The position numbers and the translations under genes are program-made. A stretch of 64,000 nt of DNA from Dictyostelium discoideum. Taxonomy: Eukaryota. Each line of letters starts with the position of its first letter. Position 1 is the stretch's first letter. The DNA lies in the NCBI GenBank assembly GCA_000004695.1, contig CM000155.2, positions 2,176,001-2,240,000 on the forward strand, written 5' to 3'. The notes under the pieces were generated by a model. That model did no database searches. It saw nothing but the letters and a program-made list of their open reading frames with translations, and was not told the origin of the DNA. Of the stretch, positions 999 to 32,464 are shown piece after piece.

Positions 999-2975
999 TT
1001 ATTTTTTATTTGTTGATTTTTTAATTGAATAAAAAATAAAACTTAAATCAAATGACCATTTTTTAGTTAATGAATTTCTATCATTTGGACCGAAATGACC
1101 AGAATCATCATCAATACCTAATAAAATGAGTGGAGAATTATTATTATTATTATTATTATCATCTCCATGTGTTAAAGATTTTAATTTATTTCTTAATTTA
1201 GCAACCCATTTTAATGGTTGCCAAAATGGTACACGATAATCACTAGTTGAACATGTAATATAAAGATTTGGTAAAGATTTTAATGATGATTGAATATTTG
1301 GATCATCTAAAAGAATGTATGGATCGTATTGTTTGATATAGTTGAAAACTTGTTTATCCAAATTTGGATTACCCCATTCACCATATTCATGAATTGTCAA
1401 AGGCAATGATTCATCTAACATTGAGGTTAAAACATCGGCAAATGGAACTTGAGAGATAATTCCACTGAAATAATGAGGATAGGTCAAGGCAACATTACAC
1501 ATTAACAATCCACCAGCACTTGAACCTCTACCAATTAAATAATTTGGACTTGTGTATTTATTTTCAAATAAATATTCAACGCAATCGATATAGTCAGAGA
1601 AAGTATTCTTCTTATTCAAAAGTTTACCATCATTATACCAAGTTCTGCCCAACTCACTACCACCTCTAACATGTGCCCTTGCAACAATAAAACCAGCATT
1701 CATCAAAAGCAAATCCTCAACATTATACAATAGAGAATAGACAGTGCCATAGGAGCCGTATCCGTGAAGTACACATGGTGTTTTGCCATCGAATCTGACT
1801 GCTTTTTTATTGTAACAAATTGATAATGGTATTTTAATTGACGGATCTGATTTTGAAGGTACCCAAAGTATGTCAGTTTCAAAAGCGTCTGGATTTATAG
1901 TTAGAGGACCTCTTTCAATTGATTCACCCAGTATAGTAATCGTTCCATCCTTTAGGGAAATCTTTGTACGAATTACATTTTGAGTTGGTGTACAATATGA
2001 TAAAAAGAAATGCTCATTATTTTCATAGCCCCCATTAACACCCATTGACAATTCAATGATTTTATGTGGAAATGTTATAATCTTTTCTAAAGATTTATCA
2101 AATCGATTTGTTTCTGCATTTTTAGAAATTATACGAATTCTTGGTTGAAACTTGTGTAAATCATTCAATACTAAATAATCTTTATACATATCAACATCTT
2201 TTATCATTGATTGAGCCTCTGAAGGTATAAATAATTCTAAATCATGAAATTTACCATTTTCAATTGTATCCTTAACTTTATAAATATTTAAATCACCCTT
2301 ATTTGCATTTGCAAATATATAAAATTCATCACCATTATGTTCTGCATAATATTCTAAATTATCAACTCTTGATAACATAATCTTATACGATTTCGATGTT
2401 ATTGGTTCACTTGGATTATCATGTAATTTATTATAATAAATTAAAGTTGATATTTTACAATTTGATAAATAAAATATATATTCACCATCTTTTGGAACAT
2501 AAATATCTAAATAATAAGCTGGATTTTCTTCATATATCATTAATTCAGATTGATTAACTTCTTCTTCATTTAATTTAATATTATTTTTAATTGATTTTTT
2601 AAATATCTAAAATAATAATAATAATAAATTACAATTAATTACCTTTTTTTTTTAAACTTATTTATTTAAATTTATAAATTACTACATACTTTATGAGAAC
2701 GATGAAAAACAAGGTCATGTTCAACATAAAACAAATCGTTATTTTTACCCCATTCAATTGAACTACAATTTTTAATTACATCTACAACTGGTGCACCTGG
2801 AATTGATATTTTTTTAATTATACAAACTTTATTTTCACTACTATCAACTTCTGTAACAAATGAAAAAAATGAATTATCCCTTGAAAATCTAAAAACAATT
2901 ATATCTCTTAAATTTATTTCATATCCTGCTATTTTTTCACCATCTGATAATAATAACTTTTTTTATTTATTAGTC

Positions 2976-3067
<92 letters not shown>

Positions 3068-3826
3068 ATATATAGTTGTTTTTACTAAAAATAAACATAC
3101 TTGAGTATAACCATCTGAAACTCTTTGACGGAATAAATTTTTATTTTTTATAATCATTTTATAACCATTTATGATTTCATCTTCATCTGGATGATCAATA
3201 AATACTCTTTTAAAAACTGATCTTAATTTTCTTGATAATGGACTTATATAAGATTTTGTAAATTTATCTTTATATTTATTTTCATTTTCAATATATTTTA
3301 ATACTTTTGGATCTTCAATATTTCTTAACCAATTATATGGATCATTTAAAGTTGTACCATGAATTTCTAATGAATATGGTTTTTGATCTGCAATTGGTGG
3401 TGGTAATGATTTTTTAGGTATTGATACTTTTTCTAAATAATAATTTAAATTACCTTTATTCAATCCAAAATCAAAATCAATTTTTTTTTTATCTTCAAAA
3501 TTTTCAACTTTATCAAGTATCTTTTCTTTTAAATCTGAAAGTAAATTAACAATACTAGAACTATATTTTCTTTTTAATAATGAATTTAATATTATTATAT
3601 TATTATTATTATCATTATTAATTTTATTGATATTATTATTACTATTGAATAAAAGAGATGATGATAAATTTTTTAAAGATATATTATTATTATTGTTATT
3701 ATTATTTTTATAATAATTAATTTTTTGTGTGAAATTTATTTTTTTTGATGTGTATGAATTTAACAAATTGTATTGATTAATCACACCCAAAGTTGATGAT
3801 AAAGGTTGAACTCTGAAAGATTTCAT
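999..3826 (-). CDS. oligopeptidase B / protease II-like serine peptidase (S9A prolyl oligopeptidase family)
   Basis: Three exons: complement(join(999..2606,2690..2956,3101..3826)). The N-terminus ...DPYNWLRNIEDPKVLKYIENENKY aligns to E. coli PtrB (DNYYWLRD..PEVLDYLQQEN). The beta-propeller region reads LLLSDGEKIAGYEINLRD..FRFSRDNSFF. The catalytic domain carries GRGSSAGGLLM (GxSxGG), VPFWQPLKWVAKLR and DSGHFG (catalytic His). Donors are CAA|GTATGT and AAA|GTATGT, acceptors AAAAAG| and TTTTAG|. Intron 1 (2957-3100) is mostly an (AAT)n microsatellite. Confidence 0.8.
2966..3068. repeat. (ATT/AAT)n microsatellite inside intron 1 of the peptidase gene
   Basis: About 100 bp of perfect ATT repeats between the donor at 3100 and the acceptor at 2957. 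The ORF track reads it as poly-N, but splice signals and homolog alignment place it in an intron. Confidence 0.6.
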
Positions 3827-3865
3827 ACTGAATGTATATATTTTAAAAACACCCCAAAGATTTAA

Positions 3866-3900
3866 TTATTCACACTAAATCACCCACCCACACAAAAAAA
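3866..3900. promoter_or_regulatory. CA-rich/G-box element (CACCCACCCACAC) in the 5' flank of the peptidase gene
   Basis: On the gene strand it reads GTGTGGGTGGGTG about 50-70 bp upstream of the ATG at 3826. It resembles Dictyostelium GBF-binding G-box/CAE elements. Further CA-rich runs lie at 4400-4500. Confidence 0.4.
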
Positions 3901-4289
3901 CAGTGAATTTTAAATAAATTTATTTTTAGGTCAGATTTAATTCAATTGGGGAAGGGTGGTGCACTGTGCTATGTAAATAAGAATTTCTTTCAAAATGAAA
4001 AAAAAATAAAAAAAAATAAAAAAATAAAAATAAAATAAAATTAAAAAAAATGAAAAAAATAGAAAAAAAAATAAAAAATGATTGAGATATGTTCTTATTA
4101 TTTTGTGAATTGATATTTATGGTGCAACCACACTATCATCTAGTTTTTATACCTTTATTTCCGATATGGAAATTTATTAATTGGAATCTTTTTTTTATTT
4201 TTTTTTTATTTTTTTTTTTTTTTTGAAAATGAAAAAATATTTAATAATAGACTATCAAAAAAAAAGATTCTTTGATTCTTTAAGTTGTG

Positions 4290-4305
4290 TGGTTAACCAC
4301 ACTTA
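4290..4305. promoter_or_regulatory. perfect 16-bp palindrome GTGTGGTTAACCACAC
   Basis: GC-containing palindrome inside a >90% AT intergenic region. A related ACCACAC half-site lies at 4123-4135. Confidence 0.35.
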
Positions 4306-4517
4306 ATTTGATAATTGTAGTAAAAATAAAAAAAATAAAAAATTAAACAAAAATAATAATTAAAAATAAATTAACAATGTGATAATTTTTGTATTTTTTC
4401 AAACCAAAACCACCACCTATAACCCACTACCACTACTATTATTAACACCATATTTCTATTTGTATTAAATCAAATTAAACCACAATTTTCACCCCACCCC
4501 CATTAACAAAAACACTA

Positions 4518-4569
<52 letters not shown>

Positions 4570-5332
4570 AAAAAGAAAAGAAAAATTAAAATAAAATAAT
4601 AATAATATTATTTTAATAAATACCAATATATTTATACAATAAATAAACTGGGTCACATTTTCATTAAGAATATAATTTTATTTTTAAATAATTTTTTTTT
4701 TAATCAAAACATACGAATAATTTTTTTATTTTTTTTTATTTTAATTTTTTTAATTTTTATATTTAATTATTTATTTAATTATTTTTTTTATTTATATATT
4801 TAAATTTATTCCTTCACACATTTTGATTGTTATCATGAAATTTAAAACATCACCATAAATAAAAATAAGACACCCCCCAAAAAATTACATATACAACACA
4901 TAATATTGTTTTTTTTTTTTTTTTTTATATTGTATAAAAATTAAATAAACCAAACACATATATATTTTTATTAATAATAATATTATTATTTAATATTAGT
5001 TTATTATTTTTTTTATTTTTTTTATTGTATTTTTTATTGTATTTTTTTTTTAATTTAATTATTAATAATACTAATTATTATTTGTCATTATTATTATTAT
5101 TTATTTATTTTTTTTTTTTTTATTGTATTATTTTTAATTCAAAAAAAAGGAATCTCCCACTTTCCAAATATAATTTTTCATACATTTTTAAAAAGTTTTT
5201 AATTAAAAAAACACTAAAAATCAAACATTATAAATATCATCATAACCAATCAGTAATATTTTCTTTATTTCAATTTTTTTACCTTTAATTTCAATTTTTT
5301 TACCTTTAATTATTATTTAATTATTATTATAT

Positions 5333-5370
<38 letters not shown>

Positions 5371-5554
5371 TTTAAAATATAGAGTATAACAATAAATAAT
5401 AAAATAAAAACAACACCATTGTTTTTTATAGCTTTTTTGTATTTTCATGAAAAATAAAAAATTTTAAAAAAAGTAATTTAGATTTGAAAATAAATTCACA
5501 AAAAATAAAATAATAAAACCATTCTACTAATGAAATAAATATTTTCTAAAAAAA

Positions 5555-6295
5555 ATGCAATATATAAAAAGTAAGTAAAATTTTATTTTACCAAATATTT
5601 TAAGTTTATTTTAAAAAAATAAAATAAAAATAAAATTAAAAAATAAAATAATAATAATAATAATTATTTTTATAATTTTTTTTTTTTTTTTTTTTACAAT
5701 TTAATTATTATTATTTATAGTGGTAATTTGTGGTGATGGAGCAGTTGGTAAAACAAGTTTATTAATTGCATTTGCATCAGGTGAATTTCCTAGAGATTAT
5801 CAACCAACAGTATTTGATAATTTTAGTACATTATATATGTTTCAAAATAAAGCCTATAATTTAGGATTATTTGATACAGCTGGTCAAGAAGATTTTGATA
5901 GATTAAGACCATTAGGATATAACGATACTGATTTATTTTTAATATGTTATTCTGTAATAAATCCACCATCATATGCTAATGTTTATGATAAATGGTATTC
6001 CGAGATTAAATTATATACCGGATCTGAAATTCCATTGATACTAGTTGGAACACAAAATGATTTGAGGCATGATAAAGCAACTCGTGAAACTTTAGCATTG
6101 AAACAACAAGCTCCAATCTCATATGAAGAAGGTATGATGATGAGAAAAAGAATTGGTGCTAAAGCTTTCACTGAATGTAGTGTTGTAAGTGGTAAAAATG
6201 TTAAACAAGTTTTTGAAGAAGCAATTAAAGTTTATCAAGATAGACAAATTGAAATTTCAAAATCAAAAGAAAAAAACAATTGTATAATCTTATAA
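5555..6295 (+). CDS. Rho-family (Rac-like) small GTPase with CAAX box
   Basis: join(5555..5570,5721..6295). Exon 1 ATGCAATATATAAAAA|GTAAGT encodes MQYIK. Exon 2 carries GDGAVGKT (P-loop), DTAGQE (switch II), TQNDL (NKxD-like) and a C-terminal CIIL (geranylgeranyl CAAX). Confidence 0.8.
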
Positions 6296-6854
6296 GTTAA
6301 AAAAAAATAAAAAATAAAAAATAAAAAACAATAAAAAAATAAAATAAAAAAAAAAATAAAAAAAAATAAAAATAATATACAAAAATAAAATTATCAAATC
6401 GATCTAATATTTTAAAAATTAAAAATAAAAATATCCAAAAATAAAACAATTGTCAAATTTGACACTTTTAAAAAAAAAAAAATTTTATTTAACTATGATT
6501 TAATTCAGTATTAAAAAATAGAGCACTCAAAAATTCACAAAATGTAATATAAAATATAAAAAAATGAATTATTTAATTAACAAAAAAACATATAAAATTT
6601 ATTCCCAACTCGTTATTCTTCAAAATAAAAAAACAATTACAAAAAATGGGATGGTAAATAATTAAATTCTAAAAATAAAATTATTGATTAGAAAAAAAAA
6701 AAAATAAAAAAAAGAAAATAATTAAAAATAAAAAAGTACACGAAAATATTACGAACATTTTCACATTAAAAAAAAAAAAATAAAAAAATAAAAAAAAACA
6801 TTTTTAGAAAATTTTCACATATCTCATACCACCCATTAAACAGACAAACAAAAT

Positions 6855-6882
<28 letters not shown>

Positions 6883-6886
<4 letters not shown>

Positions 6887-7707
6887 AAAGATTTATTTCA
6901 AATGTTTCAAAACAAATTTTAATTAAAAATCCAATTATTAAAAATAATAATAATTGTAAAATAATTAATAGTTTTTCAAACATATACAAACAACAACCAC
7001 TACAAAAACCAATTAGTTCATTATTTAATAATAATTTTAAAAATTATAATCAAAGATTTTATTGTGAAAAACAACAACAACCAAATAATTCAGAATCAGT
7101 TACAAATGCAGAGATTGATCATCATGGTGAAGATACAGAAAATGAATTTAAACCAGTAGTTGTTGATGGTGTTAGAATCGAACCAAAATATTATATCGAA
7201 TTTACATGTACATACGTTGATCCAAAATTAAAAACTGAATGTGGTTTCGTTTCAAAGAAAACTTTTTCAAAACATTCTTATCATAAAGGTGTAGTTTTAA
7301 TTAGATGTGATGGTTGTAAAAAGATTCGTAAGTATTTAAAACAGTTAAGAGAAACTATATATATATATATTTCCTTTTTTTTATTTTATTTTATTTTTTA
7401 TCTTAATAAAGTAATAAAAAAATAAATAAAAAAAAATAAAAAAAAGTCATATCTTTATTAATAATTATTATAATAATTAAAATCTAAATAAATACAAAAA
7501 AAAAAATAAAAAAAAAAAGATACAATTGCTGATAATTTAGGTTGGACAGGTTATGAAAATGCCAAAAATATTGAAGAAATTATGGCAGAAAAAGGTGAAA
7601 CAGTTAGAAGATATTTACTTAAACAAGATGAAATTGAAGATGAAAAGAAATCTGATGAGCCAGTTTTAATTGGTAGTTCAAATAAAAATGAAGAACCTAA
7701 AAAATAA
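6883..7707 (+). CDS. mtHsp70 escort protein Hep1/Zim17 (DNL-type zinc finger, Tim15)
   Basis: join(6883..7327,7520..7707). FTCTYVDPKLKTECG...FSKHSYHKGVVLIRCDGCKKI | HTIADNLGWTGY reconstitutes the CxxC...CxxC-HLIADNLGW motif across a phase-1 intron (C|GTAAGT ... AAG|AT). The N-terminus is basic and resembles a presequence. Confidence 0.75.
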
Positions 7708-7909
7708 AATTACAAATATATATAAATCCCTTTTTCATTTTTGTATAAATTTCGTGCAACACATAAATTATTATTTTTATTTTTATTTTTATTTTTTTTA
7801 TTATTATAATAATAATAATTAATAATAAAGGTAACCTATTTATTTTACTATAAACTAAAATCTTTTTTTTTTGTTTTAAATTTTATATTTTTTTATTTTT
7901 TGTTATTAT

Positions 7910-8044
7910 TTAAAAAGGTAATTCATTACCAGAATCCGCTTTTTGAAGTAATCTATTTACTAATGGATGATTTAATATATTTCCAATTATTGGTAATTTT
8001 CTAAGGATTGAAATAACAATTGGGAATGCGTCACTTTAAAGAAC

Positions 8045-8077
<33 letters not shown>

Positions 8078-8438
8078 TAGTATTTATAAATTTTTAAAAA
8101 AATGGATATGAAAATTAATAATAATAATAACAAAAATAATAACAAAAATAATAATAATAGTAATAAGATAATTACCCAAACAAATTTACAAAACCAAAGA
8201 TTTCAATGACCATTCCAACAAATGTCCATCTTGTTACTAATAATACAACGATACCAAAAAAGAATAAGATTGTTCCTTTTATTTTCTTCTTTTGGGCAAA
8301 AAACTTTGTAGTTTTTTGTAAACCTAAAATTAAAACTATACCAGATACCAATAAAAGGTTACCTAATGCTAATAAATTTCTATCTAAAAATAATAAAACT
8401 CCTAAAAATCCAAAAAATAATCCCATTGCTGAGAGCAT
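7910..8438 (-). CDS. Golgi transport protein Got1 (GOLT1) homolog
   Basis: complement(join(7910..8033,8176..8438)). MLSAMGLFFGFLGVLLFLDRNLLALGNLLLVSGIVLILGLQKT..FFAQKKKIKGTILFFFGIVVLLVTRWTFVGMVIEIFGFVNLFG | DAFPIVISILRKLPIIGNILNHPLVNRLLQ aligns along its length to human GOLT1B. The intron is phase 2 (TTTGG|GTAATT). Confidence 0.8.
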
Positions 8439-8959
8439 AGCTCCAATTTCTATAATTTATTAATTTATTATTATTTTTTTATTTTGTATTTATTTAGTAC
8501 TAATTTATGGTAATAATAATTGGTGAACTTGAAAAAAAAAAAAAATAAAATAAAAACAAATATTATTTTAATAAAAAAAAAAAAAAATAAAAAAAAAAAG
8601 AAATTTATAATTACTTTGTTGATCGGTAAACATTTTAATTTATTATATGTTTTATTTTAAAGCACGCGAATATCTTATTTATAAATATATTTAATTTTAT
8701 TGGCCAAAAAGAAAAAAAAAAAAAAAAAAAATGAAAAAATGAAAACTAATAAGTGAATTATCGTGTTGCTGAATTTGTTTTTTTTTTTTTTTTTTTTTTT
8801 TTTTGTTTTTTTTTTTTTTTCTAAATTTTTATTTTTATTTTTTTTATGAAATTGAAAAATTGAAAATTTTTTAAAAAAAAGGGTGACCACCTAAGATTTC
8901 CCAAGCTCAAAAATAAACCACAATTTAAAATGGAAATCCAAAAACAGTCAAATCAATTG

Positions 8960-9105
8960 ACTCAAATTATAATAATAAAAAAAAATAAAAAATTTTACAA
9001 TTAAATAAATTATAATATAAAAAAAAAAAAAAAAAAATTTTACAAATTGTTTAAATAAACTATAATAAAAAAAATAAAAAATTTTACACTTTGTTTATTG
9101 GGTTA
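8960..9105. repeat. ~45-bp tandem repeat (3 copies) 'aaaattttacaa(a/t)ttaaataaa(c/t)tataat'
   Basis: Copies lie at about 8985-9030, 9030-9075 and 9078-9105, between the pex13 3' end and the got1 5' flank. Confidence 0.45.
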
Positions 9106-9174
9106 TTTTTAGTTTTTTTCTTTTTCTTTTTTAAGGATTTTTTTTGTTTGCTTTTTTTTTTCCAAGAAAAAAGA

Positions 9175-9341
9175 TTAACTTTCCTCCACATATGGTTTAT
9201 CCATGAGTTCAGAGCGAGACAATTGCTGTGAGGTTTTGGATGGAGAAATTGGTCTTTGATTATCATTATTATTATTATAGATAATATTTTTTGATATACC
9301 ATCGTTATTACTACTAAAATTTGATTGTAGTTGATAATTGC

Positions 9342-9383
<42 letters not shown>

Positions 9384-10292
9384 TACTACTATAATCTGAA
9401 TATTCACTATTATTTAAATTATTATTACTATTATTTCTATTAAAACCATTATTATTATCATAAATCTGTACAGAGGTATTAATATTATTATTATTATTAT
9501 TATTGTTATTATTATTGTTATTGATATCATTTGGTGAAATTTTTTCAGTAAAATCGACTGGAAAGAAGCCACTTAAACCATTACATTCTCCAACCCACCA
9601 ATTATCGTGTGGTTTGTCAATTACATTTACAATATCGCCTACTCTTAATGGTAAATCACGAGTAGTTTCGGGGTTAAATTCGTAAATAGCCTTTACTTGG
9701 CCATAACCACCACCTTGTTGTTCTTCCCAACCTTTATCCAATCTTGATGCTTGTCCTCTTCTTCTTAAATTTAATAATTGACCAATTACCATTGGTACTC
9801 CTATAAATGTTGCTGCAATAATTAAAATCAAGGTACCAACTGATTGTTTCTTTTCGTTTTGAAAATTTCTAAAATCCTATAAAAAAAAAAAAATAATAAT
9901 ATTTGATAAATATTAGTCCAAAAGTTTCTATCTATTTTGCTCGATTCTATTCTATTTTATTCTATTCTATTCTATTCTATAGATCAAAACTTACGGAAAC
10001 ATCCATATTTGCTTGTCTTAAACTCTCTGTTATTGCATTACTTCCAAATTTGGAAGATGTATTGTTATTACTACTGTTACTTTTTGATTTCTTTCCTAAT
10101 AAATATCTAAAAACTCTTAAAAATCTAGATGCAACTGATTGAAACATTCTAAATAATGAATATGTTTTAATTATAGCCATAATTTCATAACTAAAGTGAC
10201 TCATACTTTGGCATAATCTAATAATAATATAATAAAAAAAAAATATATAATATTAGTATTTTTTATGTATAGAATAAATATATTATTTGGTT

Positions 10293-20527: not shown

Positions 20528-23039
20528 ATGTCCTTAACAATGCAACAAAGTGATAAAGAAAAAGCCTCAGAAAAACCTTCTGAAACTATTATTGAGGAAA
20601 AAGATTTAATAAGCCAACAAACTATACAAAATGAAAATATGTCAAATTCGATAACAACTACGACTACAACCACAAAACCAACCCAACCTTCACCATTATC
20701 AGCTGAGCAAATAATACGAAATAATTCCAAATCAACAGAATTAAAAAATGCATCATCTCAAGAAACCCCATCAAATCCACCACCACCAACACCATCAAAT
20801 CCCCAATCATCAAATCCCCAATCATCAAATCTTCAACCATCAATAACAGTTACTAAAGAAAGTGGTATGGAACCAGACTCGCCAACCATTTCATCAACTA
20901 AAAAGGTAAAGTATTTCCCTTTAACACCTTATCTTGATAAATTGGATCAAATTAAAAAAGTACAAGAAATCAGTGCCGATGATATGATGAATGATCCAAA
21001 TTTATTAAAGATGTTTGATGATGATAAAATGTTTTTAAGTACACCTGAAAAGAATTCATCTTCATCATCATCATCAGTATCTTCACATTCTGATAGAATT
21101 GATAGTAGTGGTGAAGTAGATTTTTTTGATTTATACGGTTCATTATCAGATAGTGATGATTCTAGAGTTTCATCTCCATCAGTGGATCTTTCAGATTCAT
21201 CATCAATAGCATCTCCATCATCAACACCAGTAATCAATGCAACCCCACAATTAGTTTCAATCTCCGAATCTAATGAAAATGATTTATCAATATCAATATC
21301 AACTTCACCACCAAACCAATCTTCAATGAAAATCGACGATAATAAAAAACCAATAAATGAAGGAGAGAAAATTATACAAATTGAAAATGAAATAAAAGAA
21401 CAAACTTATTTGGAAACTATTAAAAATGTTGAAAACACAGTATCAAAAACATCAACCATAGCAACAACACCAACACCAACATCAACACCAACACCAACAC
21501 CAAAATCAACACCAACACCAAAATCAACACCAACGACAACAACAACTACCACATCTGTAAATAATATAACACCAACCATGGTTTCGAATGAAAAACAAAC
21601 CACTACAACAACCACTAAAACTAAAACATCACCACCACCACCAACACCACCACCAACATCACCAACATCAACAACATCACCAACGTCATCAACACCACCA
21701 ACACCACCAACACCACCAACACCACCAACACTACCAACTAAAATAACAAAAAAATCTTCCACAAATAAAACATCAGAAAAAAAAGAGGAAACAAATAATC
21801 AAAAAGAACAACCATCATCATCATCATCATCGTCATCATCATTAAAAAAGAATATAGTTCAAAAACAGATTAAAAAAATTAAAGTAAAAATTGAAGATAT
21901 GGCAAACAAAAAATATCCAAATAGTAAAAGAGTAACCATCAATGGTGGGTCAGCACCACCAGATGATGAATATTATCAAAATTTATTGGAATACTTAAAG
22001 GAGGAACAAGAATTTAAACCAAGTCCATTACCAAAAGAATCATTAAAGGATGGACATGTATTTATAGTTTATGGTGATTTAACAAAGTTGGTATGTGATA
22101 TTAGAATGGTACCATGTAGTCATAATGTAGTATTTAGAGATACAATCAATGGATGGTTGAAACCTGATTGGATGTTATTCCCCTTTGAAATTAGAAATAA
22201 ATTTAAGGATATTCGTATTGATTTCCGTGATGGTAGGGATAGAGTTTATAAATTAAAAGATTGGCCAACTGAATATCCAAACATTTCACAACCATGGCTT
22301 TGCAATGTGGTTCCATTCAAACGTGGTATCGACTCACATTGTTGTGCCTGGTATGTAAAAGGTGCAATTGACTTTTTGGATAAGGTCGGACACGATCTTG
22401 AAGTCAATAAGCCGCCCATCAAAAATGGAAGAGCAAAACCATTGGTAAGTCTACCCATTTTGGGTACTGGTGGGGGTGGCGGTTCCAGAATTGCCGGTCA
22501 AATTCTATCATTGCTAATTCATGAACTATTTGTTGCAACTCGTAAATGGAAGTATGATGTTGTTTTAGTAACAAATGAAATTTCAATGTACACAGCTGCA
22601 ACCAATATAAGAAAAGAATTAATAGAATCAAACCCAACCTTCTCTTCAATCTATCGTAATCTATTGGGTGATGAAATTATGAAAAAAGCACACACCTTGG
22701 GAAAACTATTAAGAGAGGATAAATTGGCAATATTCCTTGGTGCTGGTAGTTCTCGATCAGCAGGATTACCAACTTGGACAGGTTTACTAGATATGTTGGG
22801 AGCAAAACTTGGTATGACAGAAACTGAACTCAGACAAATGGAACAACTTCATCATTTAGATCGTGCAACAGTATTAGAATCTCGATGGAAAAAACAATTA
22901 AAAAAATATTCTGAAAATATTAAAACTTCTTCTAATTCTCCTTCTTCTTCTTCCTATTCTTCTTCTTCTTCTTCTTCAAATATTTTTACACCATCACTAA
23001 ATAAAATGTTTGAAAATGATAATTTAGATGGTGCAACAA

Positions 23040-23072
<33 letters not shown>

Positions 23073-24031
23073 ATGGTTTAAAAACTACAAAAGAAGTTAA
23101 TGATGAAATTTTAAAAATTAAAAATGAAGAGAGACAGAAACAAATAAGAGAAGAAAAAGAATTATTAGAAAAAAAAAACCGTGAAAAATTAGAAAAGGAA
23201 CAAAACTTTGAATATATTCATAAGAAAATCTATAATCAAATTAATGTGCCAATGCAAACAGAGATTGCAAATCTAATGAAGGTATCACATGCAGGTTTAC
23301 CTCATTTCCTATTGGCATCGACACCTGTTCAAGAGATTGTAACCACAAATTATGATCAATGTTTTGAGATTGCTAGTAGATCTATTGGGAAGGAAATTTG
23401 TGTTTTACCATACCATTCGTTGAATGGTCGTAATAAAAGATGGATTTTAAAGCTACACGGTTGTGTTTCAAATCCTAAAGATATCATTATAACTCGTGAA
23501 GATTACATTAGATATGGGGATAAGAACGAAGCATTGTCAGGCATGGTCCAAGCATTGTTAATTACAAAACATCTATTATTTGTTGGTTTCAGTTTAACTG
23601 ATGACAATTTCTATCAAATTATGTCTGCTGTTAAACGTGCGACATCCACTGGTGAAGACGGCAGTGTCAGATTAAAGAATACTTTTGGCACAGCCCTATT
23701 TCTTCAAAGAAATGATTTAATGAATGAAATTTGGGGTAAGGAATTAAATATTTTATATTTTGATGAAAATAAATCCGATATTGCATGGTGTGCTAGAAAA
23801 CAAGAAATCTTCTTGGAATATCTAACTGGAGTTTGTAGTAATAATAATACAAGTCATTTAATGGAGAAAAGGTTCGATTGTCTATTAAAAGAAGGTGAAA
23901 AAATATTTAGAGATCGTTTAATTGAATTTGTTTCTTCATTACCTGAAGAAGCAATTAAATCTGATGCTTTCAAAAAGTTTCATGTATTTTTAACTGAAAT
24001 GGGTTATGATAGTAGAAATTTTTATTATTAA
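20528..24031 (+). CDS. large protein: disordered S/T/P-rich N-terminus + cryptic Macro-like domain + C-terminal SIR2-like (SIR2_2/ThsA/FAM118-type) domain
   Basis: Single 1167-aa ORF. The C-terminal region has the three SIR2_2 hallmarks: KLAIFLGAGSSRSAGLPTWTGLL (GAGxS..G.P.W), IVTTNYDQCFE (TTNYD) and RWILKLHGCVSNPKDIIITREDY plus LLFVGFSLTD. The mid-region GHVFIVYGDLTKLVCDIRM ... PLVSLPILGTGGGGGSRIAGQILSLLIHELF...YDVVLVTNE resembles macro-domain motifs GDITxL...DAIV and FPAISTGxYGxP...A..I..fl. Residues 1-480 are Thr/Pro/Ser-rich repeats (TPTPTS..., PPTPPTPP). Confidence 0.75.
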
Positions 24032-28193: not shown

Positions 28194-31100
28194 ATGAAAA
28201 CAAATAAAAAGCGTATATATTTAATTATTTTATTATTATTTATAAATTTTATTAAAAGCGAGGTAATAAATTTAACAGATTTAAAACAATATGAAAAATA
28301 TCAAACTTTTACAAGTACCCAAACATGTGGATTTCAATTTAATATATTAGTAAAAGATGATTCTTTTAGTATTGATCGTATTGACTTGGATAATAGTGCT
28401 CCAAAAAGTTTAGGTCAATATACCAATTTTACAAGATTTTCAACGAATAGATCAACAAATTTTATATTAAATTTTGCTAATGTAGAATTTGGTGTCTATG
28501 AAAATATTAATTTTACCACAATTGTAAATGGAGTTAAAAAAGAATGGTTTATTCTTCCAAAATTCACCTGTAATAGTATGTTTTTTAATTATGAAAAAAA
28601 AAATAAAAAAAAAAAAATTTTTTTATGTTCCAGATATTAATAAAAAAAAATAAAAAAAAAAAAGAAATTGATTCAACAAAATTAAAAGTTACAACAATAA
28701 ATAAAATAAATGTGAATCAAATTTTTATAGGATCAAAATTGTCAGGTGTAATAAAGATTGAAGGTTTTGGAAATGAAAATTATCCTTATCTATTATCACC
28801 AAATCCAAGCACAATGTATTCAATTATTAAAAGTAGTTCAAGTATGGACGTTGCATTTTTCTATGTACATACTATCGATCCAATAAGTATTTTATCCAAT
28901 GGTTCCAATTTGAATTTTACAATATCATTTTTTGAATCACCAAGTATTAGTTTTAGTTTTGAAGCAGATTCTATTAATACCAATGATGGTGATATTAGTG
29001 TGGAGATTTTATCACCACCATCACCACAACAAAATGGAAATTATCAATTAATTGGCACACATTCTTCACCATACATATTAATTAAAGCATTGCCAAACTC
29101 AATATTTTCAATTAGAAATAATGGAACTCCAGAGTTTATATCTCAACAAGGTGTAAATGAAAGAGAAGTTACATATTATTTTAGGCTACCAATAGGAGGT
29201 ATTTTCGATTCTCCATCTAATAAAAAATTACAAAATAGTACAGTTATTATTGGGAATAGAGAAGGAAATTCTATTTTTAGTCATACTTTTTCTTATTTCT
29301 TTTTTAATTTAAACGCAACTTTTAAAAATCATAGTTGGAGTTCTAGTTCATTTATTAACCTATATTCACAAGTTACTGAAATTTCAACAATGTCAACCAA
29401 AGTCACACAATTAAATATAATACTTTTAAACTACATTGTTGATCACCCATTTGGTTTAATAAATGGTAATTTAAAAAATTGTTCAATAGATATATCGATT
29501 ACTCCTCAACCTTTTTACCCTTACCCAACGCAAATATCGGCATCTATTGATGGAAATCAGCAAATATTTTACGACAGTTCAGATAGACGTGGGGAAATAA
29601 CTAAACCTCAAATATTGGATTACTCATTCACAACTCTATATGATAATTATGTATTATTAATATTTTCTTTTACATCTAGTAACCCTATTTATATGGTTGT
29701 TATTGATGGTTTTAATGTATTTTATATTAATTCAATTGTATCGGGGAAAGACTCAAATGGTACATTCGAATGTATATTTCAACAAAAATTATTCCAAGAA
29801 GGGGGCATTGCCTCATTGGCATTGATTGATAACGGCGGTATACAAAGTACATTTTCAATTGGACAATTCTATCAATTACCAAGTTCAACGAGTAATGAAC
29901 AAAGAATATTCACAATTCCACAATTTATAAATGAAATTTCATTTACAAATATTAAAGCTATCAATTTTAAATATAATGATATAAATACAACAAATGTATC
30001 ATATTGGAATACAATGACTTTAGAATTAATTAATTCATCAATTAGTATAGGTGAACCAGTACAAATTTTATTTTATTATTCAAATTATGATGATTTTGAA
30101 TCATATGATTTAAAATTATTTTTATATTGGAATAATGATAAAAAACATTGGTCAAATGATTTTAAATTACCAGCTAATCTAATAACTGGAAATGTAAACT
30201 ATATTATTATAACAACCGATGGTAATTTCTTATCATCAAATATGTTTTCAAATGATTGGCAACTCCGTGTTTACTCTGAATCTGCTGATTTATTAGGTCC
30301 TGTATTTTCAAACATTTTAAAACTTCTACCAACCATTATTAACACCAATGGAGATATTAGTTTTGGTTGGAATTTAACAATATATGATCCAATCAATGGA
30401 TTTAATAATGGTCATGTCATAGTAAGAGGTGGAATTGATAATTCAATTTATAAATTCTATTTATCTTCAAAAAATGGTAGAATGGAACTTGGTGAAACTC
30501 ACTCAATTGTAATGGTAGTTGAAAATGTTACAATCTCACAAGAATATAGAATAACTGAAGTTTTATTAATTGATAACCAAAATAGAAAATCCGAATTTAA
30601 AGAAGCTGAATTAGATAAAAGTTATAATAATCCTAAAAGAGTTAATCCATTCCTTTATTATTTAAATGATTCAAAAATAAATAGTATTCAAGTTGAAACC
30701 GGTGCAATCTATTCAACAAATAATGAAATTGATGATTTTATAATTACAAATATTGATACATATCATTTTTCAGAGTCAATTGATCAAGTTAATCAACTTA
30801 GAAATGTTAATATTTCATTCACATTTAATCAAACTTTAATTTCAAATTCAATTAAAAAAAATACGTTCCCTATTGTTTATTTTTCAAGTGCACATTTTAC
30901 AGAACCAATAATTAAATCAATTAGTAAATTTAATAATATTTCGAATGAGTATTTTGTAAATGTTGAAATCCCATTAAACTTTTCATATCCACATAAAATT
31001 GGTATTTCAATTTATGGAATAATTAATAATGCTGGCTTTTTCAATGGTTATTCATCTCAACAAATGTTAGATTCAACATTTTATCAACATGAAATTGAAC

Positions 31101-32464
31101 CATATAATAATCCAATAAATGTAAACCCAAATCTTTATAAAGCAATTCTAACAAATAGGAATTCTAAATTTATAATCATTGGTAGAGGGTTTAAGAAAAA
31201 TCTAATTTTATCAATTAATATTAAACTTGAATCAACGAGTCATCCATTTACAAATTTCACAATTATATCAACTACTTCAATTGAACTTTTAGTAAATCCA
31301 AATTTATTTACTCATTTATCAATTTCTTTAAGTGCAACAGTTGTTGGTGGAAAAGAAACTAATGAGATTGTAATAATTCCAATAATACCGACCCCAATTC
31401 AACCACCAATTCCATCATTATCACCAATACCAACCAGTCAACCACAAAAATGTCAAGGTAATCCAGAATGTGGTGGACCAACCAATGGATATTGTAAAAT
31501 TGGTGTTGGATGTTTATGTTATTCACCATTTATTGGTATAGATTGTACTTCAAAAATTATAATTGTAACCCCACCAATTGTAAATCCATCAAAACCAGAA
31601 ACAACAATTGATGTACCAACACAATCAAATAATACTACTGGTAATAATAATGTTAAATCAATAATTTCAATTGTAGCATTACGAGAATTAAATTCAGTAA
31701 CTGGTGAAGAAGTTAAAATTCATTATTTTGAAAAATGGATTTATACAAATGTTTCAGAAACAATATCACATTATCAAAGTAATATTACAAATAATGGTGG
31801 TGGTAGCATGGTGACAAATGTAAAAGCTATATTACAATGGTTTAAAAATGATGAGAATATTACATTTGCAAATCAAGAATTAATAATGCATTCATCAACA
31901 ATGAAATATACAATTGAGTTATCTCCATACACTTTTTCAAATCCATTAAATAATTTACAAATTGTAATGTCTGCTCAAATTCAGTCAAGTAAAGAAAACA
32001 CGTGTTCAGATAAAGAATTTGGTAATACTGTTATTGATAATTCAAATTACATTAAATTAAAAGTTGATAAAAATAGTTTCTACGGTAGATACATTAAAAG
32101 AGGTATAATTGATGATAGAGTAGTATCAATAACAAATGAAGTTTTAGATTCAAATTTTAATATAAAAGATAATGAAAATAGTGTACAATCATTCATTGGT
32201 ATTTCAATTGGTAATTTTAAAAAATCAGTCATTATCGATCCAGATTTCTCAATATTATTAGAACAAAATTCAGCAACTTCAATTTGTAAACAACAATCAT
32301 CAAATAAAAGTTTAACAAAATCTCAATTAATTGGCATTATCATTGGTTCAGTTGCAATGTTTATTGTAATTTTAATAATAATTGGAAAATTAATTTATTC
32401 ATCTTCAAAATGTTTACCAATTAAAATTTTAGTTTATAAAATATTTAGAAATAAAAAACATTAA
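28194..32464 (+). CDS. large type-I membrane glycoprotein with C-terminal EGF-like module
   Basis: Signal peptide MKTNKKRIYLIILLLFINFIKSE. The ~1350-aa N-glycosylation-rich (many NxS/T) ectodomain contains an EGF-like CQGNPECGGPTNGYCKIGVGCLCYSPFIGIDC. TM segment LIGIIIGSVAMFIVILIIIG is followed by a short cytosolic tail. The two track ORFs (28194-28640 and 28625-32464) differ in frame. They most likely join through a phase-1 intron of about 28576-28731 (AAT A|GTATGT ... TTTTATAG|GA), but the exact junction is uncertain. Confidence 0.55.

Follow-up and report, generated by a model that had tools for sequence, protein, structure and literature searches.

What could a single amoebal gene do with a macrodomain-like region joined to a SIR2 domain of the kind used by bacterial antiphage systems, and what might switch its product on? 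This question is raised by a locus of Dictyostelium discoideum located in a stretch of 64,000 nucleotides (assembly GCA_000004695.1, contig CM000155.2, positions 2,176,001 to 2,240,000 of the forward strand), hereafter the window, within which all coordinates are counted. There, a complete single-exon open reading frame (ORF; 20528..24031, on the + strand like every feature described below) encodes 1167 amino acids (aa) plus the stop, and corresponds to the D. discoideum EukProt entry EP00023_Dictyostelium_discoideum_P001125. The gene encodes a eukaryotic member of SIRim clade C, in which a long, presumably disordered N-terminus is followed by a compact unit made of a macrodomain and a ThsA-type SIR2_2 domain. 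The original prediction for this DNA had proposed the fusion of a Macro-like domain to a SIR2 domain of the NADase type; this fusion is borne out, the motifs quoted in its support were all found in the ORF where they had been placed, and its two structural claims (a SIR2_2 domain behind, a macro-like fold in the middle) survived the refutation tests that had been proposed along with them.

The class itself is not new. Antiphage-type SIRim domains have been surveyed in EukProt, which led to the definition of five eukaryotic clades, and clade C, described as "SIRim fused to a Macro domain", branches with ThsA-like bacterial sirtuins and spans 83 eukaryotic species (Bonhomme et al., bioRxiv 10.1101/2024.09.18.613514). 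The D. discoideum protein is listed as clade C in the supplement of that survey, where the entry is identical to our ORF over the N-terminal ~395 aa compared, and homologs from Cavenderia, D. purpureum, Tieghemostelium and Capsaspora appear in the same list; the SIRim and Macro architecture is the same, with no structural difference. The survey also places a second antiphage-type SIR2 gene of D. discoideum (EP00023_P009224) in clade A, which is FAM118/SIRanc-like, and D. discoideum therefore holds two independently derived SIRim lineages. Furthermore, the tree legend of the structural paper on FAM118 shows SIR2_2 members with Macro fusions. The novelty implied by the original prediction is thus lost: because the 2024 preprint already lists both the protein and the architecture, the finding is the rediscovery of a catalogued, uncharacterised class, for which this gene is a good and tractable candidate. 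What is added here are the abundant stand-alone bacterial counterparts, the lack of a TIR partner, the non-canonical loop 1 of the macrodomain, the affinity to ThsA over FAM118 and a rigid two-domain model.

The C-terminal domain

The C-terminal domain (aa 716-1167, 22673..24028, including a C-terminal helical extension and split by a lineage-specific insert) is a ThsA-type SIR2_2 domain, an assignment made because the sequence matches, the fold values and the aligned catalytic Asn and His point to it. When the whole protein was compared with Pfam, the only match was SIR2_2 (PF13289; E=4.4e-31, 108.3 bits versus a cut-off of 24.5). Among the PADLOC models, ThsA was the best (E=1.6e-32, matched over its SIR2 part only, positions 70-212 of 478), followed by PDC-S25, Dsr2, LmuA and Dsr1, and in NCBIfam the SIR2 part matched Dsr2 and SIR2_antiphage, both below threshold. 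The best sequences in the PDB were the ThsA proteins of Streptococcus equi (7uxt, 2.7e-15) and Bacillus cereus (6lhx, 1.1e-13).

The motifs lie where they would be expected in such a domain: the Rossmann NAD-binding motif FLGAGSSRSAGLPTWTGLL (22733..22789), supported by alignments and PDB sequence matches, and, as seen in alignments, TTNYDQ with the catalytic Asn N941 (23342..23359), KLHGC with the catalytic His H977 (23450..23464) and LLFVGFSLTD, a conserved strand and loop motif of SIR2_2 (23573..23602). N941 and H977 align with N112 and H152 of ThsA, respectively, and are invariant in every alignment made. Mutants of these two ThsA residues lose the NADase activity, and N112A also abolishes Thoeris defence (PMC7272460). 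The SIR2_2 hallmarks claimed for the C-terminal ~400 aa, catalytic equivalents included, are therefore all in place; by analogy, the domain would be a glycohydrolase of nicotinamide adenine dinucleotide (NAD+).

Fold comparison gave the same answer. The top values were those of the S. equi ThsA (SeThsA, 22.6, with 280 residues aligned) and KomC (21.3 and 20.8), followed by Avs5 (18.7 and 15.8), the SIR2 of SIR2-HerA (15.6) and FAM118B (15.2), and the lowest were those of canonical sirtuins (11-13.5) and SirTM (11.1). The fold is thus ThsA-like and not that of a canonical sirtuin, and its closest structural relatives are all defence effectors. As for the zinc-binding Cys module, no CxxC pair exists in aa 716-1167; the zinc Cys tetrad, a hallmark of deacylase sirtuins, is described as lacking in every SIRim protein. 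The statement that this is not a SIR2 of the sirtuin deacetylase type holds on both counts.

The label "ThsA/FAM118-type" given in the original prediction deserves more nuance. Its ThsA half stands, since type I Thoeris ThsA (PDB 6LHX, 7UXT) is the closest SIR2 by both sequence and fold and has the same catalytic Asn and His. The FAM118 half is true at the subfamily level only: FAM118A and FAM118B (SIRanc), the vertebrate filament-forming NAD-processing enzymes, are eukaryotic descendants of antiphage-type sirtuins and share the SIR2_2 subfamily with our protein. However, the FAM118 clade is vertebrate, and its members share at least 41% identity with the human FAM118 proteins (PMC12700824), whereas FAM118B was reached by our protein in the PDB sequence search (phmmer) at E=0.04-0.07 only, and the protein is listed in clade C, not in clade A.

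Two further elements belong to this domain. The first is a Dictyostelium-specific insert of 99 residues (aa 797-895, 22916..23212), defined by alignment and structure model, which consists of a disordered, S/T-rich part (aa 810-851) with a predicted local distance difference test score (pLDDT) <50 and, behind it, what is predicted to be a long K/E-rich helix; in the alignment, its length is greatest in the genus Dictyostelium and reduced in other dictyostelids, and bacterial homologs do not have it. The second is the C-terminal strand and helical region (aa 1046-1167, 23663..24028), which is modelled with high confidence and common to the bacterial Macro-SIR2 family. No C-terminal SLOG/STALD sensor was found, the region behind the SIR2 domain being this helical tail of the family.

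A divergent macrodomain in front of it

Can a region that profile libraries do not recognise be called a macrodomain? Neither the whole protein nor the isolated middle region matched Macro, SLOG or LOG in Pfam, even at E<=10, so that the profile check suggested for this region came back empty; a word-seeded homology search gave no matches when the query was the middle region by itself, and fragments only when it was a profile of the middle domain. The region (aa ~508-712, 22049..22663) adopts the three-layer alpha/beta/alpha macro fold, and in this respect the expectation of a macro-like middle part passed the fold check. In an exhaustive HMMER search with the middle domain, 515 cluster representatives were collected (E<=1e-3). 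When 32 members of the family were trimmed and made into a profile, this matched macroH2A1.1 (7ny6) at E=1.8e-4 and, more weakly, the Thermus macro protein TTHA0132 (E=0.46), in the latter case with both GD(I/L)T..DA and LP.LGTG.GG aligned. The comparison of the family profile with a single TTHA0132 fragment by hhalign was weak (probability 45%, motif 1 alone aligned); it is accordingly the fold, and not this comparison, on which the macro assignment is based.

Two segments of the domain can be matched to macro motifs. Motif 1, GHVFIVYGDLTKLVCDIRMVPC (22052..22117), comprises beta1, GDLT and beta2 with family-invariant His, Phe and Asp residues in the family alignment, the Asp being D524, which aligns with the adenine-contacting position of macrodomains. 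The phosphate-binding loop 2, LPILGTGGGGGS (22451..22486), has glycines that are invariant or nearly so and aligns with LLGTGVGG of TTHA0132. GDIT..DA and LLGTGVGG of that protein are the aligned counterparts of D524 and LGTGGGGG, which also align to macroH2A1.1. In more than 60 members from bacteria and eukaryotes, the pocket residues (H, F, D and GTGxGG) do not vary, and this implies that the ligand site is conserved.

Loop 1 is a different matter. In a weak profile alignment, the canonical DAIVNAAN..LGAGVAGAI is replaced by DAWLLPTD and a Trp-containing, glycine-free segment, and the family as a whole follows the pattern (L/M)(L/V)P-x-(D/S), then a glycine-free segment with a nearly invariant Trp. 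The hallmarks of MacroD-type hydrolases, namely the catalytic Asn of NAAN and the Gly-rich loop 1, were not found, as judged from a weak sequence alignment. Because both are lacking, the macrodomain is probably non-catalytic, a binder rather than a hydrolase, and its specificity is possibly altered at the distal ribose.

The two-domain unit from bacteria to amoebae

In the two-domain model (predicted template modelling score, pTM, 0.85), the macrodomain is rigidly packed on the SIR2_2 domain, which speaks for a fixed interface suited to allostery. The pairing is essentially obligate, given that nearly all full-length proteins among the 515 cluster representatives have SIR2_2, and bacterial proteins of ~500-560 aa align over the whole macrodomain, SIR2_2 and C-terminal tail, with the macrodomain at their extreme N-terminus. 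Like type I ThsA, the D. discoideum protein joins a predicted NADase domain to a predicted nucleotide-binding domain (the macrodomain). Unlike ThsA (SIR2-SLOG), whose SLOG is C-terminal, the sensor would be an N-terminal macrodomain.

A genome scan confirmed 460 loci with the Macro-SIR2 unit. Full length is reached by the best 80 of them, most of which belong to Myxococcota (Polyangium, Minicystis), Planctomycetota (Gemmata), Actinomycetota, Chloroflexota and related lineages of soil or sediment. Among dictyostelids, orthologs are present in another strain of D. discoideum (96%), D. dimigraforme, D. purpureum, Polysphondylium violaceum, Tieghemostelium lacteum, Heterostelium album and Cavenderia fasciculata, and other eukaryotes with the unit are Capsaspora owczarzaki (CAOG_00925) and the amoebozoan Vermistella antarctica. 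In a neighbour-joining tree, the eukaryotes group together with bootstrap values of 100% for Dictyostelia, 60% when Vermistella is added to them and only 25% for all eukaryotes; this is a rough Kimura-distance tree with weak deep support, which cannot settle the number or direction of transfers. A scan of viral contigs gave two SIR2-only matches and no virus-borne Macro-SIR2, and a virus as the vector of the unit is thus without support.

Some members depart from the common plan. In CAOG_00925 (P0047), a B-box zinc-finger match lies upstream of the unit, although a weak one (E=0.0011, 19.6 bits, below the cut-off of 24.1); if real, it would make the arrangement TRIM-like and hint at immune signalling in a unicellular organism closely related to animals. 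The gene model of H. album PPL_12611 (P0007) is without the GAGxS NAD-binding segment and the next ~190 aligned SIR2 columns, a gap that is probably a mis-annotated intron or the sign of a degenerate copy. Three metagenomic proteins of 1112-1693 aa (P0033, P0037 and P0105) each have two SIR2_2 stretches and a macro-like domain, and may be tandem or duplicated Macro-SIR2 arrangements.

Gene neighbourhoods of the bacterial counterparts

Are the bacterial units encoded near a gene that could make their signal? Neighbour genes were called with a criterion based on GC content at third codon positions (GC3), which left ~12 of the 80 focal genes uncalled, so the neighbour counts are approximate. A single-query phmmer search found no TIR homolog among the 633 neighbour ORFs of the 80 bacterial loci, and a TIR_2 gene was seen near Macro-SIR2 in one of ~85 loci (metagenomic), two genes away. 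In this, the bacterial relatives are unlike type I Thoeris, since these censuses show them without a ThsB/TIR partner. In PADLOC, the macro half of the bacterial proteins is not covered by any model. The bacterial Macro-SIR2 module is self-contained, and with no recurrent partner and no TIR, a Thoeris-like two-component logic is without support from the genomic context.

Clustering of the neighbours in the 80 loci revealed lineage-restricted partners only, among them GAF-HATPase_c proteins (5 loci) and SPFH; the closest bacterial homolog lies 3 bp behind an FHA-GAF-HATPase_c gene. At some loci these neighbours are ADP-ribose or NAD genes (NrtR, ARPP-1, ADP-ribosylglycohydrolase) and at some they are of defence type (giant helicases, NERD, kinase-STAND, patatin). 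NUDIX-NrtR genes adjoin Macro-SIR2 in 7 of the 80 loci (L020, L022, L025, L037, L041, L044 and L073), often with an unannotated gene of ~310 aa next and then an SPFH/Band_7 gene. The locus of Nocardioides salsibiostraticola (L003, 3551-8554) is an ADP-ribose-centred island, in which Macro-SIR2 immediately follows an NrtR-type WHD gene and has ARPP-1 and a 538-aa ADP-ribosylglycohydrolase next to it; DUF4011-helicase, UvrD and DEAD/MZB giants flank the cluster. In four phylogenetically diverse metagenome-assembled genomes (L042, L045, L050 and L056), a DAGK_cat/YegS gene of 301 aa, with a NAD-kinase-like fold, is located immediately upstream and overlaps the start of Macro-SIR2 by 9 bp. On the defence side, an Actinotalea locus has NERD and HEPN-helicase genes near Macro-SIR2, and Polyangium spp. 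(L026, L028, L031 and L032, about 2100-9900) present an apparent three-gene operon, where a gene for a ~1300-aa Ser/Thr kinase-AAA_16 (STAND-like) protein overlaps the start of Macro-SIR2 and a 757-aa patatin-like phospholipase is encoded downstream. This operon looks like an uncatalogued multi-effector conflict system.

How might the enzyme be controlled?

By analogy with its relatives, a picture can be drawn to which we give about an even chance of being right. The SIR2 NAD+ glycohydrolase would normally be kept inactive; ADP-ribose, or a nucleotide derived from it, would bind the pocket of the macrodomain and bring about a change of conformation or, probably, of oligomeric state, and the resulting oligomer or filament would turn NAD+ consumption on, with a stress, immune or cell-fate response of the amoeba as the outcome. 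The ORF, the identities of the two domains, the retained catalytic and pocket residues and the conservation of the unit from bacteria to amoebae are established. The picture is favoured by these domains and residues, by the fixed interface of the model, by the essentially obligate pairing and by those bacterial loci that lie among ADP-ribose, NAD and defence-type genes. Control through the oligomeric state has been seen in ThsA, Avs5, KomC, FAM118B and the macro-containing type II ThsA. In type II Thoeris, the macrodomain is the nucleotide sensor of the immune effector, in which ligand binding leads to oligomerisation; our protein resembles that TM-macro effector (PDB 8V6Q) in that a macrodomain, here predicted to sense, is part of a SIR2-type protein as it is there of an immune effector. 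The authors of the SIRim survey infer likewise for clade C (bioRxiv 10.1101/2024.09.18.613514).

Several results weigh against this picture of a ligand-controlled NADase. The Gly-rich loop 1 is absent and there is no Pfam Macro match, which makes ADP-ribose binding a prediction. In bacteria, no neighbour gene is conserved, as no Pfam family occurs more than four times among the 114 immediately flanking ORFs, TIR is not among the recurrent families of this set, and there is no broad enrichment of catalogued defence genes in it, the PADLOC matches being four kinases only. A genetically linked signal generator, which defines the Thoeris logic, is not supported. In Dictyostelium, the genes around the ORF within the window are ordinary eukaryotic housekeeping genes, and none adjacent to it is a ThsB (TIR) gene. 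Finally, no functional papers on this protein or on bacterial Macro-SIR2_2 proteins were found.

What, then, are the other ways of reading the protein? The signal could come in trans: the TirA protein of Dictyostelium is needed for feeding on and defence against bacteria, and it is conceivable, if improbable, that Macro-SIR2 is the effector arm of a eukaryotic Thoeris-like pathway, in which Dictyostelium TIR proteins would make an ADP-ribose-derived messenger that enters the unusual macro pocket and causes filamentation and NAD+ depletion. Were this true, no ligand-gated SIR2 NADase immune switch would have been shown earlier in an amoebozoan, and a new signalling nucleotide would be specified by the non-canonical loop 1. 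Somewhat better placed, and still unlikely, is a metabolic feedback enzyme, whose macrodomain would sense its own product ADP-ribose, or the ADP-ribose/NAD state, and tune the SIR2 NADase in NAD+ homeostasis or stress. NUDIX-NrtR proteins are ADP-ribose-responsive regulators of NAD metabolism, and their adjacency in the seven loci mentioned above, plus the Nocardioides island, fits such a role, as do the four NAD-kinase-like genes overlapping the gene start, the lack of a linked signal generator and the stable retention of the gene in all dictyostelid groups. However, NrtR adjacency concerns a minority of the loci (~9%), other loci have defence-type neighbours, and the nearest structural relatives are all defence effectors.

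The same facts about loop 1 and Pfam that make ligand binding a prediction would suit a macrodomain that is purely a structural or oligomerisation module and has lost its ligand, activation coming from protein-protein contacts; in Dictyostelium the trigger could act through the disordered N-terminus and in Capsaspora through the B-box, or a pathogen protein could be sensed directly, as DSR2 does. Eukaryotic members have gained differing N-terminal appendages, and there are known SIR2 defence proteins, encoded by a single gene, with direct sensing of phage proteins. Nonetheless, the strict conservation of the adenine-contacting Asp and the GTGxGG loop is hard to explain without a nucleotide ligand, and we consider this reading rather improbable. 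SirTM and the fungal macro-fused SirTM Mfs1 (PDB 8RSN) also couple a sirtuin-fold domain, functionally or physically, to a macrodomain, and by their example the SIR2 domain could ADP-ribosylate a protein or nucleic-acid target whose mark the macrodomain removes or reads. The fold speaks against such a writer-eraser pair, as does the absence of the catalytic macro motifs; unlike SirTM, our domain has neither the fold nor the sequence of a class M sirtuin, and there is little probability left for it. That the gene is a bacterial contaminant, or reached the genome by very recent horizontal transfer, might be suspected from the fact that the nearest full-length non-eukaryotic relatives belong to soil bacteria such as Myxococcota. 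This is refuted: the ORF is AT-rich like its surroundings and has typical Dictyostelium low-complexity tracts, it is flanked by ordinary eukaryotic genes, orthologs exist in all dictyostelid groups, the protein groups with Vermistella and Capsaspora in the rough tree, and the published eukaryotic clade that includes it spans 83 species.

The N-terminal region and the surrounding genes

The first 497 residues (20528..22018) form an S/T/P-rich, low-complexity and presumably disordered region, little conserved among dictyostelids save for one short linear motif, KYFPLTPYLDKLDQIKKVQEI (aa 128-148, 20909..20971), kept in dictyostelid orthologs within this variable N-terminus. Its consensus in the alignment, KYFPLTP(Y/H)L.K(L/F)DQ(I/L)K, is present in all dictyostelid orthologs, Cavenderia included, and it may be a docking or localisation motif. 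The mucin-like disordered N-terminus pointed out in the original prediction is therefore there, but it is no peculiarity, long low-complexity N-termini being commonplace in Dictyostelium.

The window is AT-rich (GC content 0.15-0.32), and the ORF shares this composition and contains the homopolymer and low-complexity tracts typical of Dictyostelium. Its neighbours in the window encode WASH, a dual-specificity phosphatase, Pex13, a CCT subunit, ribosomal S9 and an amino-acid permease, as well as a ComC-like surface protein of 1279 aa (28625-32464) with DUF7035, DUF7034, DUF7949 and a ComC supersandwich domain. The latter ORF has no relation to the Macro-SIR2 gene.

Significance

The bacterial counterparts, which are numerous, stand-alone and part of no PADLOC system, would offer a parallel test bed for the amoebal protein. 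Should the proposed control of the NADase through the macrodomain prove true, the haploid D. discoideum would become a tractable eukaryotic model for what switches antiphage-type SIR2 NADases on and for the role that they play, and it would reveal whether, in a ThsA-type SIR2 protein, the part of the allosteric sensor can be taken by a macrodomain instead of SLOG.

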